From IMG/VR virus record IMGVR_UViG_3300045988_100918: a DNA stretch of 32,289 bases, one strand, 5' to 3'. Source of the DNA: a virus. The notes below the pieces were generated by a model. The model was not told where the DNA came from, made no database searches, and saw only the letters and a list, made by a program, of their open reading frames with translations. Made by a program: the position numbers and the translations under genes. Shown in pieces: positions 13,140 through 20,097 of this stretch (positions are counted from its first letter, which is position 1; the number at the start of each line of letters is the position of its first letter).

Positions 13140-14249
13140 TCAGCCGAAAAGCTCCTTGTATAGCGCGTCCATGCGCTTTACCGTCTCGTGCGCGCTAAGG
13201 CGCTTCATGCTGCCGCGCCACGACTGGTAGGATTGGTTGACCTGCTCGACGGTCATAATCCCCTTGGCGACAAGCGCGGCTTGCTTCTTCAGCTTGCGCC
13301 GCTGCCGCGTCACGGAGGAACGGCACGGGCGAACGACAACCTTTCCGCCCTCGCCATATGAAAACCTCTTCTTCAGGAACACGAAGCCGCGCGTCAGCTT
13401 CACAACGCGCGTCTTCTTGCGGTTGATGATGATTCCCAGATCGTCGCAGAGCGCTTCGATGCGCGAAAGAGCGTCCCAAAGCGTCTGCTTGTCAAGGGCG
13501 ATGCAATAGCTATCGTCCATGTATCGCCCGCTCGCCAAGATGCCCGGAAGGGACAGCATCAGATGGTCAACGGGCGACGGCAGGGCGACGGCTAGAATCT
13601 GGTTCGGCTCGCTGCCAAGACCCAAGCCGCGCGCGCCGTGAGCGTCTATCTGGTCGCTCATGACGCGCTTAACGCGCTCATCGTCAATGGCTCGGTCGAT
13701 AAGGCGCTTGCATGCGTCGTGGTCGATGTTTGCGAAGTAGTCCGCGAAATCGACCTGCAAGATGTAGCCTTCCGCTCCATGCTTTCGGTGGTGCTCGACA
13801 AGCTGGCGCTTCATGCGTCGAATCGCGTAGTCGGTGCCGCGCCCCTTGACGTTCGCTGTGCATCCCTCGGTGAGGGTAGGCCAGATCGCGGGCGCAAGCG
13901 CGTGACGGCTCAACGATTTCTGTATAACGCGCTCTGAGAAGTGGACAGAGCAGATGTGACGAAGCTTGCCGCGCTCGAACAAGTCAAACTCAATGAAGCC
14001 GCGCCGGAAGTCAGCGCCCGTGAGAAAGTCGCGCCGTGCTCTCATGATGTTTGGAACGACGCGCGCCATGTAGCGCTGAACGCTCGATTTCCAACGCACG
14101 CCAGCGGCAGCGCCGTTGGCGGCATCGTATAGGTTATCGAGATCGGCGACAGCTTCCAGCGTGCAACCCTCGATGCGCCTAGCCCGGTTCTCAGCGCGCT
14201 TGGCATCGCGCCTTGCGCGCCGCGCAGCCCTGCGCTCTTCAGAGTTCAT
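13140..14249 (-). CDS. DGR reverse transcriptase
   Basis: RT motifs with catalytic YMDD (SGRYMDDSYCIA) and upstream FADYFANIDH. Likely start MNSEERRAA at 14249. The ORF-track extension to 14537 would run across the template repeat and is not credible. Adjacent TR/VR pair and avd-like gene. Confidence 0.9.
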   Translation of the reverse strand: MNSEERRAARRARRDAKRAENRARRIEGCTLEAVADLDNLYDAANGAAAGVRWKSSVQRYMARVVPNIMRARRDFLTGADFRRGFIEFDLFERGKLRHICSVHFSERVIQKSLSRHALAPAIWPTLTEGCTANVKGRGTDYAIRRMKRQLVEHHRKHGAEGYILQVDFADYFANIDHDACKRLIDRAIDDERVKRVMSDQIDAHGARGLGLGSEPNQILAVALPSPVDHLMLSLPGILASGRYMDDSYCIALDKQTLWDALSRIEALCDDLGIIINRKKTRVVKLTRGFVFLKKRFSYGEGGKVVVRPCRSSVTRQRRKLKKQAALVAKGIMTVEQVNQSYQSWRGSMKRLSAHETVKRMDALYKELFG

Positions 14250-14460
14250 GAGGGCACCCCGCGCGGCTCGCAATCGGCATCCAGCAGCCGCTTGACGGTT
14301 GACCATGAAACGCGGTCGAACGCCGAGAACCGCGCCATGCAAGCAGCGAACGGCAACCGTCGCGGGGTGCATATTTACGGGCTTGCGCCCGATGGTCGCC
14401 CCTTCCTTCCTCAAATGCACGGCGCGCGGCGCTTCCGGCCGCACGGTCTGGCAATGCTTG
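14250..14460 (-). ncRNA. DGR spacer region between TR and the RT start, expected part of the TR-containing DGR RNA
   Basis: Non-coding GC-rich segment containing a GCGGC-GCTTCCG-GCCGC hairpin. Its position matches the spacer used to prime cDNA synthesis in characterized DGRs. Confidence 0.4.
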
Positions 14461-14589
14461 GGAATCACGGCAGCGGGCGCACCCAGTCGTTCGTCGGCGC
14501 ATTGTTGTTGGCATTGCCGTTGCTGTTGACATTGCACGCGCTAGACGAAGACCCGCCCATGACCGACCGCAGCCACCAATTGACGCGAT
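14461..14589 (-). repeat. DGR template repeat (TR)
   Basis: 129-bp near-copy of 15162-15290. On the minus (coding) strand it is rich in AAC/AAT codons (AAT GTC AAC AGC AAC GGC AAT GCC AAC AAC AAT). Mismatches to the VR are almost exclusively at template adenines. Confidence 0.9.
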
Positions 14590-14617
14590 GATTTCCAAGG
14601 GACAACGCGCGAACATT

Positions 14618-15028
14618 CTACCCATTTCCAATGAGCTTCACGCCCGCGCGAGCGCCCTTTATGAGCTTTATATCGTTCTCGATGCTCTCTGAGATCTCTT
14701 CGAACTTAGCCACCTTGACGGGTAGCTTCATCGCAAGAAGGCATTGCAGGTCTTGGTAAAGCTGGTTTAGGTCTGCCAAGGCAAGCGTCATGTAATGCTT
14801 GCGTTCCTCGACGTTCCGCTGTGTGTTCGGGTAGAAGGCATCAGCCTTCACAAGGTTGAACACCACGCTTCGCGCCGTCTCCGCCATGGGGACGGCGAAG
14901 ATGAAGCGATAGGATTTGGGCACCGCGCCCGAAGTGACAAGGCGCGTCACCTCGTTTCGAATCGAAACCGCAGTGTTGAAATACTCGAACGTGCTTAGGT
15001 TGCGGTTCCGCACATATACGCCGCTCAA
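14618..15028 (-). CDS. avd: Avd-like accessory variability determinant (small basic helical protein)
   Basis: 136-aa ORF sitting exactly between the target gene and the TR, as in the Bordetella phage mtd-avd-TR-brt cassette. Apparent TTG start preceded by GGAGGGG. Basic, helix-rich composition. Confidence 0.5.
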   Translation of the reverse strand: MSGVYVRNRNLSTFEYFNTAVSIRNEVTRLVTSGAVPKSYRFIFAVPMAETARSVVFNLVKADAFYPNTQRNVEERKHYMTLALADLNQLYQDLQCLLAMKLPVKVAKFEEISESIENDIKLIKGARAGVKLIGNG

Positions 15029-15061
15029 TTTGCAACATCCCCCCCCCCTCCGTGATTTTCA

Positions 15062-15098
15062 AAAAAATACTTCGCCCGCGCTTCGCGCGGGGAAGTAT
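15062..15098 (-). terminator. rho-independent terminator between the DGR target gene and avd
   Basis: TACTTCGCCCGCGC-TTC-GCGCGGGGAAGTA stem (15069-15098) followed on the minus strand by TTTTTTT (complement of 15062-15068). Confidence 0.7.
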
Positions 15099-15150
15099 GG
15101 GCGCATGCGCAAGGCATGCGCCAGACCTGTACCATATACGGCTGATTTTA

Positions 15151-16053
15151 TCAGCCTAGGAGGAAGCACGGCAGCGGGCGCACCCAGTCGTTCGTCGGCG
15201 CAGTGTAGCTGGCAAGGCCGTGGCCGCTGACAATGCACGCGCTAGACGAAGCCCCGCCCATGACCGACCGCAGCCACCAAATGACGCGACCGCCCGCGAT
15301 GCGGCTTGCGGTGTCGGTGAAGATTGGGAACTGCGAATCGAAGCCGACAGAGTAGCCCTTGCTGCCCCATACTGGGCACCCGTAAACCTCCATCTCTGAG
15401 GGCGACCAAATCTTGCCCAAGTCCGCCCAGCTCCAACCGCTCGCTTCGGTGAGCTTGCCCGAAGACGAATAGCGCTCTTCGAGAAGCACGCGCTGCGCGA
15501 GAATGGCGCTCTGAAGCGTGGACGGCAGCGCGGGCAAGAAATCGTTGATCTCCCAATCATGGAGCTTCGAGCACAAGTAAGGGTGCTTATCTTCGGCGGT
15601 GCCGTTGTTGTCGTTTGTCTCGCGCCACTGAAGGTAGCTCGTGTTGGATGCCTTGTCGCCCTTCACGGTGACGGGCGCTTTCGGCACCATGACGATATGA
15701 TGCCCCTTCGCGGTGTCTCCGCACTGGTAATACTGGTCGATAGCGCCGATGCGGTAGCGCACCGTCTGCGCTGGCACGTTAGCGCCCTCGGAAACGGGAA
15801 CGTCGATGTAGTCTCCGATGCGCAGACCGGCGAAGTTGGCGTTTCGCGCGCGGTTGCGAAGCCACGTGTAAATGTCGGTGCTGCCGATCTCGTTAGCGAA
15901 GACCGAAGCGAGCGAGCGCCCCGCGTAAGCGTTGATGTTGTGCTGGCGGTCGTATTCCTCGGCGGTCGTGACAGAATCGGCCTTGCTCTGCGCTGAAGTG
16001 TCCTTCAGGTTGTACGCGGTGCCATTGATAGAAAACTTCGACAAATCAGCCAT
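15151..16053 (-). CDS. DGR target protein: tail fiber / receptor-binding protein with a variable C-terminus (presumed C-type-lectin-like)
   Basis: 300-aa ORF in the tail module. Its C-terminus ...SSSACIVSGHGLASYTAPTNDWVRPLPCFLLG is encoded by the VR. Variable residues I, S, G, H, L, S, Y, T correspond to N/S codons in the TR. Confidence 0.8.
   Translation of the reverse strand: MADLSKFSINGTAYNLKDTSAQSKADSVTTAEEYDRQHNINAYAGRSLASVFANEIGSTDIYTWLRNRARNANFAGLRIGDYIDVPVSEGANVPAQTVRYRIGAIDQYYQCGDTAKGHHIVMVPKAPVTVKGDKASNTSYLQWRETNDNNGTAEDKHPYLCSKLHDWEINDFLPALPSTLQSAILAQRVLLEERYSSSGKLTEASGWSWADLGKIWSPSEMEVYGCPVWGSKGYSVGFDSQFPIFTDTASRIAGGRVIWWLRSVMGGASSSACIVSGHGLASYTAPTNDWVRPLPCFLLG
15162..15290 (-). 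repeat. DGR variable repeat (VR) at the 3' end of the target gene
   Basis: Aligns to the TR with offset +701 and 13 mismatches. The 36 bp at the 3' end of the coding strand (15167-15201 region) are identical to the TR, as expected for an IMH-like invariant segment. It encodes the last 43 codons of ORF 15151..16053. Confidence 0.9.
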
Positions 16054-16068
16054 TGATAGTCTCCCTTC

Positions 16069-16800
16069 TTAGTTGAGCGTCGCCGTCTCGCCGCTCACGG
16101 TGGCTTGCGCAACCGTGACCGTCTCGCCGGATAGGGCGCTTCGTCTGTTTGTGGGCATGTACGCCGTTTCTCCAAGGACTATGTAGCCGTCCTGAAGCTC
16201 GACAAGGGCTGTCGCAAGCGTCGCGTTCTCGTCGCGCAGCTCTTGCACCTCGTCATCTGACGGCGGTTCGATAGCCGCGACAGCGTTTGCGATATTAAGC
16301 GCGTTCTGTGCTGCGGCGGTGGCATCCTCTGCCGCGCCGTTTGCAGTCGCAGCGGCGGTGTTGGCGTTCTTTACCGCCGTCTCTCCACGGTCGATGAGGT
16401 CTTGAACGGCATCGTCCCAGTTCTGCGCGGGCTGCTGCCCGTCAAGAGCGCTGCGCAGGATTTCTATTGCGAATCGCTCTGTCGAATAGGTCTTGCCGCT
16501 CTTCGTGATCGTGAAATAGGCTTCGTCGGTGTAGCCGGACACGCTGCAAAGCTTCGATTCGTCAACCGTGATCGTGGCGGCGTTTCCGCTCACCGAGCAT
16601 TGGCCGCGATAGTAGTTACGTTTGTTAGGCAGCAGCACGACAAGCCATGCCGTAGCACCTGAAAGCGCGAACTCATCGCCGTTGTCGTAGATAAGCGCCT
16701 TGATGGTGGTTCCGCCATCGTCGCCCTGACCAACCTTGATGCAGGTTCCCGCGCCCTCCTTCGAGATATCGAGTTCAAGCGTCCGTGTGTTGCTCATCAC
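16069..16800 (-). CDS. BppU-like tail/baseplate protein
   Basis: The N-terminal domain resembles siphovirus BppU_N. It has an Ala-rich coiled-coil middle and is immediately upstream of the receptor-binding gene. Confidence 0.4.
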   Translation of the reverse strand: MMSNTRTLELDISKEGAGTCIKVGQGDDGGTTIKALIYDNGDEFALSGATAWLVVLLPNKRNYYRGQCSVSGNAATITVDESKLCSVSGYTDEAYFTITKSGKTYSTERFAIEILRSALDGQQPAQNWDDAVQDLIDRGETAVKNANTAAATANGAAEDATAAAQNALNIANAVAAIEPPSDDEVQELRDENATLATALVELQDGYIVLGETAYMPTNRRSALSGETVTVAQATVSGETATLN

Positions 16801-17273
16801 TCGCCGCCTTCCTCGACGGTGCCGTATGCAAGCGCGCGGAGGGCTTCGAGCGCTTCGGCGAAGCTCATAGCAGATCGCGCCTTGCTAGACACGGGCTGCA
16901 CGTCCGCGCTCGCGGCGACGGCTGGCACGCTCGCGGCCAAAGCGTCGAACACATCGACAACCGCCCTCATGCGGTCATCGACGTACAAGGGCTGAACGAG
17001 CGTGAAGGGCTGATCGTCGTTGATTGGCTCCTTCACGTCTTCCGGCTGCACGACGGTTCGGTTTCCGTCTTCGTCAACCGCAATGAAAATCATTCCGTTG
17101 TTCGCGGCGCGGTTGATAAGCTCTTCGTCGTATTCGGTCACCATCGCTTCGCAGTTGCCTATCGGGTCGTGCAGCATGTGATAAAGTGTCTTGCTCATCG
17201 TTCCTCCTAGTCGAAGTTGCATACCGTGCAGAAGCCGTCTACAAAGTCGATGCTTCGCGTTGCGCTCCACCAT
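16797..17273 (-). CDS. hypothetical tail-associated protein
   Basis: 158-aa ORF between the Tal and BppU-like genes. Confidence 0.4.
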   Translation of the reverse strand: MVERNAKHRLCRRLLHGMQLRLGGTMSKTLYHMLHDPIGNCEAMVTEYDEELINRAANNGMIFIAVDEDGNRTVVQPEDVKEPINDDQPFTLVQPLYVDDRMRAVVDVFDALAASVPAVAASADVQPVSSKARSAMSFAEALEALRALAYGTVEEGGE

Positions 17274-19381
17274 GTAATCGTGCCGTCGCCGTTATCCTGA
17301 ATCTTGCTGACGTAATGCAACGTGCAATCTTTCGTGATCGCATGCGTTGTCGTGGTGCTCTCGCTGCTAGATGCAGCGGCGGAAATAAGCGGCGTGGTGA
17401 TTCGGATATGCTGGTTTCCCGTCAACTGAAGACCGGCCGTTAGCTGCCCGGTGCTAACGTTTCGCATGTGCGCTGAGAAGTCGATAGCCCCGATCTGCGT
17501 TCCGTCTTCGTAGCCTTTAATCTCGCCACTGGCAAGACGAATGAGGTTTGAAGCAGAACCGCATTCGAACGTACCGTTAGCGTCGATATTGTTTGCCGTC
17601 ATGTAGTTTGTCGTAAGCGAACCGGTGTTGAGGTTCCACGTGCTGCGACCGTATCTGTCGCTGATGATGCCCGTTTCAATGTAGGTAGCATTGATGTAGA
17701 CTTTACCGCCGCTGAGATAGATTCCCTGCGTCTGCCCGTTGTTGGTCAGCTTGTTGAATATGTCGCGTTGCGTTTGAGCATCGACGGCTGAGCTTGCCGC
17801 ATCGTCGGCGATTTTCTGAACGGTCTTGCCGCCAACCTCGGTGCTTGCGGAAAGCGAGAACTCGCCGTTGGTCAAGTCCCAGAAGTTGTTTCCCTTCTCG
17901 TCGGTCAGAAGACCGGCGCGCACGCGCTCGGCTCTCATGGTGCCCGTGTTGATCGCGTCGGCGCTCACCATAGCGCCTGTCAGGAAGGTTCGCCAGTCCC
18001 ATTGACCGTCAGAAGTGAGGTTCGCGGCAAGTCGCATGCCCATACCGTTAATGTTGACAGCCCACATGCCCGAAGTCGCTTTGACCGGCAAGCCCGTTTC
18101 AGCGTCGATGGGTACATTGCTCCACATCGTGCCAAGTTCGAATGTCTCGACCTTGTAGGTTCCAACGGCGTTGAACTGAGCGTTTATCGCGGCCTGAAGC
18201 TGCTGAAGCCACGAAACCGACGTGCCCGCCGCAGCGTCATAGATTGCGTTCTGTTGGCTGTTGCTCTTTAACGCGTTGCTTACGCTCTGCCACATGTCGG
18301 CCATGCTGTCAGTAAGAGTGCCGAACGTAACGGTAGCGTCGCCGGTGAGCAAGTCGCGCTCAATCTGAGACACGCGGCCATGCAGGCGCACGCCCTCGGC
18401 AGAAAAGCCCTTGTCGATGATCGCCACGTCATCGCCCACGCCCACGCCCTCCCATGAGCGCCCGAACGCGTAAAGGTCGATAACCGAAGCGGTGTAGGTT
18501 ACTTTCGGCTCCTTCACCTGCTCTAGGTAGTCTTTCGTTTCCTGCAAGAGCTGCGCCGCGTCCTCGCACTGCGCGTTGACGTATGACGCGACGGCGGGAA
18601 GAATGCCGCCCTCTCCGTCAGGGTGCCCCCAAACGGTAGTAGCTTCGGCATCCTCCACGTAGTCTTTGCCGCCGTTGATATCGCCGAAGGTGAGACGGCG
18701 ACCGTAGCCGCCACCCTCAGTCTCAACGCCCTTGCCGTAACCGTAGACGCGAGTTTTCGGGTTGTCGCTCGCAACAGAGCGCTTGACGGAAACGAGGTCT
18801 TTAGTCCATGTAAAACGCTTTGCGCTGCTCTGGTTCCCGCGCTTCGCGCGCACGCCCACGCGGCGGCTCACAATGCCCGTACCGTTGTGGACGATGAGCG
18901 TTTCAAGCTCGCCGCCCCACGTCTCGATGATTCCGGCCAATCCCTCGCGCACGCTCTCATGGTAGAAGGTGCGCGAGGCTGTGCCGCCCTGATCGCACGT
19001 GCCGACCTCCCAGCGCGTGTCTGCGAGAATGGACGCGAGCGCTACCGACACGCCGCCAGAAGGCCGCTTATCGTCCAGCCAGTCATCCCACGTTTCGTTA
19101 ACAGAGTTGATGCAGACGGCTTGCGTCTCTGGCGCGCCGTCATCGTCGTGTGCGCGGTCGATGGTGTCAACGATGTGTTCGTGGCACACGCCCTGAAGGT
19201 CAATCCAAACTACGCGGTCGCCCTTCACGAGGTCTTCGGCGCACGTGATGTTGAGTTCGTCGGTTCCGTCCAGCGCGTCGGTGTGCGTCGCGGCGCTCAC
19301 CGTGAGCCGCCCCAGATTGTCGCCCCAGCGGTTGAAGCGGGTGAAGCCGATACGTCTTATTAAAGCCATCGTTCCACCCAC
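17207..19381 (-). CDS. tail-associated lysin / prophage tail endopeptidase-type protein (Tal)
   Basis: 724 aa downstream of Dit, the canonical TMP-Dit-Tal order. N-terminus MALIRRIGFTRF... (ATG at 19369 possible). Confidence 0.6.
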   Translation of the reverse strand: MGGTMALIRRIGFTRFNRWGDNLGRLTVSAATHTDALDGTDELNITCAEDLVKGDRVVWIDLQGVCHEHIVDTIDRAHDDDGAPETQAVCINSVNETWDDWLDDKRPSGGVSVALASILADTRWEVGTCDQGGTASRTFYHESVREGLAGIIETWGGELETLIVHNGTGIVSRRVGVRAKRGNQSSAKRFTWTKDLVSVKRSVASDNPKTRVYGYGKGVETEGGGYGRRLTFGDINGGKDYVEDAEATTVWGHPDGEGGILPAVASYVNAQCEDAAQLLQETKDYLEQVKEPKVTYTASVIDLYAFGRSWEGVGVGDDVAIIDKGFSAEGVRLHGRVSQIERDLLTGDATVTFGTLTDSMADMWQSVSNALKSNSQQNAIYDAAAGTSVSWLQQLQAAINAQFNAVGTYKVETFELGTMWSNVPIDAETGLPVKATSGMWAVNINGMGMRLAANLTSDGQWDWRTFLTGAMVSADAINTGTMRAERVRAGLLTDEKGNNFWDLTNGEFSLSASTEVGGKTVQKIADDAASSAVDAQTQRDIFNKLTNNGQTQGIYLSGGKVYINATYIETGIISDRYGRSTWNLNTGSLTTNYMTANNIDANGTFECGSASNLIRLASGEIKGYEDGTQIGAIDFSAHMRNVSTGQLTAGLQLTGNQHIRITTPLISAAASSSESTTTTHAITKDCTLHYVSKIQDNGDGTITWWSATRSIDFVDGFCTVCNFD

Positions 19382-20097
19382 TCAAGAATCGCGGTGCCGT
19401 TGGTGATGTTCAGGTGGCAGCGACCGTTGATCTCGAAGTAATCCGAGTCAATCGTTACCGGCGCTGTCTGGTTGTTGACCGTCGCGTGCTCGGTCGCCAT
19501 GTCAAGCCGTATGGTGCTCGAAGACGTGAGCGCGGTGTTGATAGCCACGAACTCGCCGGTATCGACGTTCGTAATCCTCCACGTGCTGCCAGCGGCGGGC
19601 TTCGCCGTGACCTTCAGGTATGCGGGTCGGTTGCCGCCAGCGTTCACGTAGATGTTGCCAGCCGAAACCTCCATGCGGCGCTTCTGGCCGTAATAGTCGG
19701 GGTCGCCGACGTGGAACGTCACGGTGGTTGTCGGGCAATCGTCCGTGATCTCGTCTAGGTCGGTGCTGCCGCTCACGATTGCGAGCAGGTAGCGCGTCGG
19801 GTCATCGGGAAGGTAGAGCGGCGCGGGTTCGTCAGTCCAGAGAGCCGCCGCGAGCTTGTGCCGCATCTCCGCGACCTCGCGGCGGTCTTCAGTCCTAAGC
19901 CAAATCTCAACGGGAAGGTCGTAGCCGCCACGGTAGGCGCTCTTGAAGACCTCGCCATGCCGCCCCGGCACGCTCTCGAACGTCGCGTTGACGGTCGCCA
20001 TGATGGGGCGGCGCACCTTGCAGTAAACCAGCTTCGATAGGTCGGTGCCGTTGAAGATGATTCGGTCGTGCTGGTTCCTAGTCCGTCTAAGTTGCAA
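19360..20097 (-). CDS. distal tail protein (Dit, Sipho_tail family)
   Basis: 245 aa immediately after the tape measure gene, with Sipho_tail-like N-terminal beta-sandwich sequence features. Confidence 0.6.
   Translation of the reverse strand: MQLRRTRNQHDRIIFNGTDLSKLVYCKVRRPIMATVNATFESVPGRHGEVFKSAYRGGYDLPVEIWLRTEDRREVAEMRHKLAAALWTDEPAPLYLPDDPTRYLLAIVSGSTDLDEITDDCPTTTVTFHVGDPDYYGQKRRMEVSAGNIYVNAGGNRPAYLKVTAKPAAGSTWRITNVDTGEFVAINTALTSSSTIRLDMATEHATVNNQTAPVTIDSDYFEINGRCHLNITNGTAILEWVERWL

Follow-up and report, generated by a model that had tools for sequence, protein, structure and literature searches.

We analysed the hairpins that lie beyond the target gene of a diversity-generating retroelement (DGR) in a viral DNA stretch of 32,289 nucleotides, IMG/VR record IMGVR_UViG_3300045988_100918 (the window), with emphasis on one hairpin, H1, at the stop codon of that gene. 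The window holds what its sequence identifies as a complete DGR of a Collinsella prophage, made up of the target gene with its variable repeat (VR), an open reading frame (ORF) in the position of Avd, a template repeat (TR), an RT-2 RNA and a reverse transcriptase (RT) (Table 1). A search for relatives returned near-identical loci from Collinsella genomes and human-gut viral contigs. The minus strand is the coding (sense) strand for the target gene, VR, TR and RT, and sequences are given in that sense unless stated otherwise. The TR (14588..14461) and the VR (15289..15162) are 128 nt long and differ as listed in Table 1; because the mismatches sit at TR adenines, with the VR in the target gene and the TR as the template, the locus was recognized as a DGR. 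Across the relatives, 25–26 of the 26–27 TR adenines were variable in the VR. The 3' part of the VR at 15167-15202 is GC-rich, identical to the TR and similar to an initiation of mutagenic homing (IMH) element. The target ORF (16053..15151) ends in ...CTC CTA GGC TGA, with the stop codon at 15153..15151, and the domain matched by its C-terminal half is a C-type-lectin-like domain found in DGR targets (PMC10743442).

Table 1 Coordinates of the DGR components and of the hairpins between the target gene and the Avd-position ORF
Feature	Position	Strand	Description
Target gene of the DGR, 300 aa	15151..16053	-	From the ORF list; C-terminal half matches DUF6273
VR, 3' end of target gene	15162..15289	-	12 mismatches to the TR, 11 falling on TR adenines
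H1 hairpin GGCTGAT-AAA-ATCAGCC	15140..15156	-	Perfect 7-bp stem, 3-nt loop, stop codon in the 5' arm
Mini-hairpin GTAT-ATG-GTAC	15129..15139	-	From fold; mostly GTAC-NNN-GTAC in close relatives
H2 hairpin GGCGCATGC-CTTGC-GCATGCGCC	15100..15122	-	9-bp stem with 7 G-C pairs, pentaloop, 39 nt from the VR end
H3 intrinsic terminator TACTTC-C-CCCGCGC-GAA-GCGCGGG-C-GAAGTA + T7	15061..15098	-	14-bp bulged stem
Avd-position accessory ORF, 136 aa	14618..15028	-	By its position between target and TR
TR	14461..14588	-	128-nt repeat, 701 nt downstream of the VR copy
RT-2 RNA motif, Rfam RF03077	14234..14456	-	Full-length match, 99.9 bits (gathering score 40)
RT ORF	13140..14537	-	Pfam RVT_1 and PHROG reverse transcriptase; frame open from within the TR

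Beyond the end of the TR/VR homology at 15162 and a spacer of 5 nt (TCCTA), the minus strand forms H1 from the arms GGCTGAT (15156-15150) and ATCAGCC (15146-15140) with the loop AAA (15149-15147). The stem opens at the last sense codon, which encodes glycine, and the TGA stop at 15153..15151 lies in its 5' arm. H1 was present in the minimum-free-energy fold of both strands, and no T-run follows it on either. On these points our analysis agreed with the original prediction, made from the sequence, which had described a perfect 7-bp hairpin, GGCTGAT-TTT-ATCAGCC on the plus strand at 15140-15156, as spanning the target stop immediately next to the VR, had denied it the role of a terminator, and had placed the true terminator at 15062-15098, where we found the 14-bp bulged stem of H3 with its T7 at 15067-15061. 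The spacer of 6 bp given there was counted here as 5 nt, a trivial matter of where the homology is taken to end. A GC-rich hairpin at 15100-15122, H2, sits between the flagged hairpin and the terminator and was absent from that prediction.

Taken alone and folded as DNA, H1 had a predicted energy of -6.6 kcal/mol, compared with -12.2 kcal/mol for H2. Four of its seven pairs are G-C, which is not above the G+C content of the window (58.6%). Perfect 7-bp hairpins with loops of 3–5 nt occurred 21 times in the window and 9.4 ± 3.3 times in shuffled windows. Since such hairpins are not rare, the significance of H1 derives from its position and conservation and not from the existence of a hairpin as such. 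At control stop codons of the related loci described below (n = 2183), stems of at least 7 bp overlapped the stop in 1.1% and stems of at least 6 bp in 3.5% of cases. Three to four hairpins, namely H1, a GTAC mini-hairpin, H2 and H3, crowd the 100 nt that separate the target gene from the Avd-like ORF, and the whole region folded as RNA reached -57.3 kcal/mol with a z-score of -6.3.

Conservation was assessed on 242 loci whose RTs are related to that of the window, with identities from 100% to 37%; the contigs were of viral, genomic and metagenomic origin. A TR/VR pair was detectable in 187 of them, giving 84 distinct VR 3' flanks. For H1, 45-nt segments around the target stop codon were clustered at 75% identity into 31 clusters, and 15 of these (48%) had the stop covered by a Watson-Crick stem of 6 bp or more, as compared to 3.5% of the 2183 control stops from the same loci, an enrichment of about 14-fold. 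The stem was unchanged in the closest group. Elsewhere its sequence differed from clade to clade, with the forms GGCTGA-TTTA-TCAGCC, GGCTAA-GCA-TTAGCC, GGCTAGC-GTAA-GCTAGCC and GGTTAGC-GCA-GCTAACC, as well as GGTTAGGCC-GTA-GGCCTRRCC, TCAGCTGA-GACT-TCAGCTGA, ATCGGCTGA-GAAT-TCAGCCGAT, GGATAATGG-GCA-CCATTATCC, GGGTGAGT-TAT-ACTCACCC and CGTGGGCGC-GAACTAA-GCGCCCACG. The loops varied freely among the relatives (GATA, TTTA, GCA, GTA, GAAT, GACT, TAT, ATA).

RNAalifold returned no consensus structure for an unguided alignment of the H1 region, in which stem and loop lengths vary by clade, and the search of Rfam gave no family for H1, H2 or H3, with sub-threshold noise only. After the RNAalifold result, pairs were counted on the same alignment, and the control-stop-codon test given above was carried out. 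In this sequence-only MAFFT alignment the seven pairs of H1 were formed in 79.6% of cells, as opposed to 62.8% in shuffles and 26–42% in slid controls, in which the pairing partner was moved by 1–3 columns. The stem-preserving compensatory changes among homologous DGRs to which the original prediction had looked were found, with double-sided changes at 6 of the 7 pairs, and none of 500 shuffles equalled the observed score. Hence, the pairing of H1 is under selection. Its position with respect to the stop codon and the end of the VR is likewise constant, with the stem opening at the last Gly codon; the stem itself was kept in the 15 clusters mentioned and was degenerate in about half of the 31. 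Among the cells that were not Watson-Crick, 15 were G-T or T-G and 2 were A-C or C-A, so that wobble pairs are tolerated on the sense strand only. This lopsidedness indicates a structure that is kept in sense-strand RNA or in single-stranded sense DNA rather than as a symmetrical cruciform. Two loci from one viral contig (L019 and L178, IMGVR_UViG_3300045988_077710) lacked one base where the hairpin begins (GC in place of GGC), with which the target frame runs past the normal stop and a 6-bp stem is left; the frameshift is genuine or else stems from a sequencing error.

H1 was also found in shortened forms. In a group of loci with RTs 92–93% identical (group B), a 5-nt deletion has reduced it to GGCT-GATA-AGCC, a 4-bp stem of -3.5 kcal/mol. 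The 25 loci of this group carry 16 distinct VRs, whose variable columns fall at TR adenines in 26 of 29 cases, a pattern that we take to be the footprint of ongoing diversification. Other clades have GGCT-GAA-AGCC only, or a GC-GAA-GC mini-hairpin, and stems of 2–3 bp or none at all were likewise seen; in the L121 group, where GC-GAA-GC is all that is present, 13 VRs were counted in 15 loci. As relatives with stems of 4 bp or less thus still show adenine-specific VR diversity, H1 appears not to be essential, which argues against a strict need for it in retrohoming.

The second hairpin, H2, starts 18 bases beyond H1. Its loop CTTGC reads GCAAG on the other strand, where it is GNRA-like. Nearly every locus possessed a member of this family, defined by a GC-rich stem of 8–11 bp and a loop CTTGC, CTCGC, CTTGT or CTCGT, and 37 distinct versions were collected at distances of 17–47 nt (mostly 33–40 nt) from the VR. 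In the H2 alignment, the pairs were formed in 94.3% of cells, 9 of 10 pairs showed double changes, no shuffle out of 500 equalled the score, and the loop and its closing C-G pair were invariant. Wobble cells were rare and symmetrical (5 versus 4), so that the pairing is close to strictly Watson-Crick. Hairpins of this type numbered 191 in 1.49 Mb of sequence, 165 of them within 70 nt 3' of a detected VR and most of the remainder upstream of an RT at loci without a detected VR; the window has exactly one. In a small number of relatives that fall inside the same RT tree, the loop at the H2 position reads GCAA, GAAA, TCT or AACA on the sense strand (GAAA or GCAA in L211, L041 and L201), and the outlying L051 has a canonical GGAA loop there, the most distant relatives keeping only the hairpin at the H2 position. 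In the isolated Roseburia phage Shimadzu, with an RT 46.7% identical, GGC-GTAA-GCC is followed by CCGGCTAC-CTCGT-GTAGCCGG. A T-rich tail follows H2 in some clades (L105, L121, L203) and is lacking in the window.

A kissing loop between H2 and the RT-2 RNA, suggested by the match between CTTGC and an invariant CUUGC in the RNA, was considered and rejected: the RNA stays CTTGCATGG whatever the H2 loop (CTCGC, GCAA, GAAA or AACA), and the two sequences are identical and not complementary.

Efficient homing of the DGR of phage BPP-1 depends on the 24 bp that follow the VR, made up of a 4-nt spacer and then GCGGGGCC-GAAA-GGCCCCGC (Guo 2011, PMC3240598). The pairing of this hairpin matters and its stem sequence does not; shortening the stem by 2–6 bp, exchanging GC for AT pairs, or replacing GAAA by CTTT or a larger loop nearly abolishes its function, and related phage DGRs have GC-rich stems of 7–10 bp with GRNA loops at 4–34 bp from the VR (PMC3240598). 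The same hairpin criteria are reused by myDGR (PMC6602519). In a survey that applied the strict BPP-1 definition, high-confidence GC-rich inverted repeats were reported for only 34% of DGRs (Wu 2018, PMC5758913). In the BPP-1 sequence we found that the TAG stop overlaps the first base of the stem and that this hairpin is the only one between mtd and avd, as opposed to the two or three present in the locus described here.

H1 resembles the BPP-1 hairpin in lying just 3' of the VR after a 4–5 nt spacer and in having a stop codon that touches the stem or falls inside it, and it shares with the BPP-1 type the distance from the VR (5 nt, within 4–34 bp), the stem length of 7 bp and a pairing that is kept while the sequence varies. 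It differs from this type in having a stem with only 4 of 7 G-C pairs, a 3-nt AAA loop in place of GRNA, loops that vary, and stems of no more than 4 bp in active relatives. The proposal in the original prediction that H1 is a recognition hairpin of the BPP-1 type was therefore partly supported, in that position and conserved pairing agreed, whereas a GC-rich stem, a GRNA loop and the need for a long stem did not. H2 has the GC-rich stem of 8–11 bp, the conserved loop, the variable stem sequence and the independence from a T-run that are expected of the BPP-1 type, and departs from it in its 5-nt CTTGC loop, the complement of the GNRA-like GCAAG and not itself GRNA, and in its distance from the VR, which at 33–47 nt (39 nt in the window, marginally outside) reaches or exceeds the limit of the published 4–34 bp. 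In these respects H2 is the best match to the DGR hairpin or cruciform of BPP-1. It is favoured as the main element because it is near-universal, covarying, conserved in its loop and located almost exclusively 3' of VRs.

In many H1 variants and in the H3 core, a C-G pair closes a loop of the form G-N-A or G-N-N-A (GCC-GAA-GGC, AGC-GCA-GCT, CGC-GAA-GCG). These resemble the GNA/GNNA type of DNA mini-hairpin, represented by d(GCGAAGC); the H1 loop of the window itself, AAA, is unlike it. H1, H2 and H3 also share with intrinsic terminators and with the target stem-loops of group IIC introns the location at the 3' end of a gene, and H3 is a true terminator. Unlike terminators, H1 and H2 have no T-run in the window, and the conserved loop of H2 is not a terminator feature. 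It has been suggested that DGR hairpins may derive from terminators or from group IIC intron target stem-loops (Guo et al., PMC3240598). Two further papers were set aside as sources on this system: a 2026 preprint on an E. coli DGR names Collinsella only as the origin of CspRecT, and the hairpin of the tentaclin paper is a protein beta-hairpin.

The flagged hairpin is thus genuine and conserved, and probably not the main recognition element. We tentatively read H1 as an auxiliary hairpin, conserved and acting on the sense strand, in a target module of several hairpins in which H2 is the principal BPP-1-type element, and give this reading slightly less than even weight. In a 2026 study, deletion of the stem-loop impaired editing severely and not completely, and editing was favoured if the sense strand, to which the cDNA is complementary, served as lagging-strand template (PMC12875486). 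The cDNA was proposed to anneal to the single-stranded sense strand, whose open state the stem-loop may prolong; there is as yet no settled account of the way in which the cDNA locates the VR and takes its place (PMC12875486). Applied to the window, H1 would fold beside the IMH-like end of the VR whenever the sense strand becomes single-stranded, either as lagging-strand template or in a transcription bubble. Once folded, it could help to hold the site open, or draw H2 nearer, for annealing of the adenine-mutagenised cDNA, while H2, with its GC-rich stem and conserved CTTGC loop, would act as the principal recognition hairpin.

Several points weigh against H1 as an auxiliary element of such a module. 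Its role in retrohoming and its division of labour with H2 are what we infer from sequence comparison. At the H1 position of the most distant relatives (L082, L051 and others) no hairpin was found. The strength of H1 did not track VR diversity across clades, and the clade with the longest stems (9–13 bp) had only 4 distinct VRs in 14 loci. Tolerance of G-U pairs is a classic signature of RNA structure, and a role in the mRNA fits the wobble bias of H1 equally well. Gene order was uninformative as well: none of the 242 RT-derived loci had a second VR or another arrangement, and among 80 further loci from a target-protein scan none with enough downstream DNA lacked the DGR. Because the VR adjoins the Avd-like ORF in all loci inspected, synteny cannot separate a link of H1–H3 to the target from one to the expression of the downstream operon.

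An alternative is that H1 is a structure of the late (tail-gene) mRNA, acting in translation termination or, together with H2 and H3, in protection of the 3' end, and unrelated to cDNA homing. Its wobble pairs occur only on the sense strand (15 cells versus 2), it is one of a group of 3' stem-loops of which the last is a true terminator, and the RNA fold of the region is markedly stable (-57.3 kcal/mol, z-score -6.3). We nevertheless regard an mRNA structure as unlikely, since H1 has no U-run and hence is no terminator, since there is no evident reason why such a structure should in many clades start at one and the same place, the final glycine codon 5 nt from where the TR/VR homology stops, and since a stem over the stop in 15 of 31 clusters, versus 3.5% of other stops, is no general property of these genomes. 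An innocent palindrome, arising by chance or maintained neutrally, is far less probable still. About nine hairpins of this kind are expected per 32 kb, and H1 is degenerate or absent in roughly half of the clusters; these facts are outweighed by the approximately 14-fold enrichment over control stops and by double changes at 6 of 7 pairs, for which slid and shuffled controls gave far lower values.

Conversely, H1 itself might be the equivalent of the BPP-1 hairpin or cruciform needed for target recognition, leaving H2 as a terminator or as a 5' element of the downstream operon. The geometry is that of BPP-1, with a spacer of 4–5 nt and a stem that touches or contains the stop codon, pairing is kept by compensatory change, and the T-rich tail of H2 in L105, L121 and L203 would be compatible with a terminator there. 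This assignment appears rather improbable to us, given that 4 of 7 G-C pairs and an AAA loop contrast with the GC-rich, GRNA-looped type, of which the BPP-1 member is very sensitive to shortening, AT exchange and loop changes, and that H1 measures 4 bp, 2–3 bp or nothing in clades that still diversify. Moreover, it is the H2 loop that is conserved while H1 loops are free, which corresponds to the pattern of Guo et al. for a functional element, and the most distant relatives have a hairpin only at the H2 position, with GGAA in L051. Within the family, GAAA or GCAA loops are found there in L211, L041 and L201.

The DGRs of this clade of Collinsella phages possibly recognise their target not by a single GRNA hairpin but by a composite 3' module, composed of a wobble-tolerant sense-strand hairpin around the stop codon and a strictly Watson-Crick, GC-rich H2 whose conserved pentaloop mirrors the canonical loop, a proposal that we consider doubtful at present. 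Were it true, DGR lineages would not all share one hairpin-loop code and one strand usage, and engineered DGRs could be targeted orthogonally with modules of this kind. The element is known in kind, as a DGR target hairpin; new are the AT-containing, apparently dispensable stem at the stop codon and the distal GC-rich hairpin with a non-GRNA pentaloop. The BPP-1 hairpin is the only defined cis-element beyond the IMH, and the conserved, covarying hairpins found here fall outside the criteria drawn from it, so that present detectors may underestimate how general and how varied the DGR target hairpin is. H1 stems of 9–13, 7, 6, 4 and 2 bp occur naturally next to an unchanging H2 and form an existing set of constructs for the contribution of the proximal hairpin, and the sense-strand wobble bias bears on which of the two strands matters.

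The terminator H3, with the core CCCGCGC-GAA-GCGCGGG inside its 14-bp bulged stem and T7 at 15067-15061, had an energy of -14.6 kcal/mol. It was not listed by a simple terminator scan, owing to its bulged outer stem, and was clearly visible in the fold predictions. The inner core CGC-GAA-GCG recurs in many clades with a varying outer stem and with a T-run after only some copies, and H3 is missing from several actively diversifying clades. As it lies only about 30 nt from the Avd-like ORF in the window, expression of the DGR there seems to need terminator read-through. Between H1 and H2, many clades (e.g. L105, L111, L116, L126 and L236) carry a CCGTAC/CGTATAC motif after H1 and within the mini-hairpin. 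In most clades a -10-like hexamer (TATACT, TACACT or TACAAT) was observed 3–6 nt upstream of H2; in the group of the window it is degenerate (TACAGG; region 15123-15139). A promoter scan of 14400-16200 gave no sigma-70-like site on either strand. The two motifs may represent a promoter or a protein-binding site for the operon of Avd-like ORF, TR and RT.

Regarding the remaining components of the cassette, the RT ORF matched Pfam RVT_1 with 34.9 bits (cut-off 29.6) and the PHROG reverse transcriptase with E = 2.8e-62. The RT-2 RNA begins 5 nt past the TR end, in the position of the DGR spacer RNA, and shares sequence with the 5' part of the RT ORF. For the 136-aa ORF in the Avd position there was no significant match in Pfam or NCBIfam, no functional PHROG and no match to an Avd profile; its single weak match was to a PHROG of unknown function. 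Its positional homologue in Roseburia phage Shimadzu is annotated as Avd, and the ORF may represent a divergent Avd family. Upstream of the DGR lie genes for tail and baseplate proteins (Prophage_tail and BppU_N domains), and downstream lie genes with CBM_5_12 and Peptidase_C39_2 domains, which form a probable lysis module.

Two minor observations were made in the vicinity of the cassette. Tandem Repeats Finder reported nothing for 15900-19500 of the window, and diverged direct repeats with 63-nt offsets and approximately 60–66% identity were seen by self-comparison about 1.1–1.4 kb upstream of the VR in related loci (L001, 2580-2933). A tract of ten G residues at 15039-15048 (minus strand; a C-run on the plus strand) lies past the terminator and ahead of the Avd-like ORF, embedded in the context CACGGA-G(n)-ATGTTG. 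In close relatives the tract was 7, 8, 9, 10 and 11 residues long in 14, 17, 20, 5 and 2 cases, respectively; these differences may come from strand slippage that alters how the Avd-like ORF is expressed, or may be noise from assembly.

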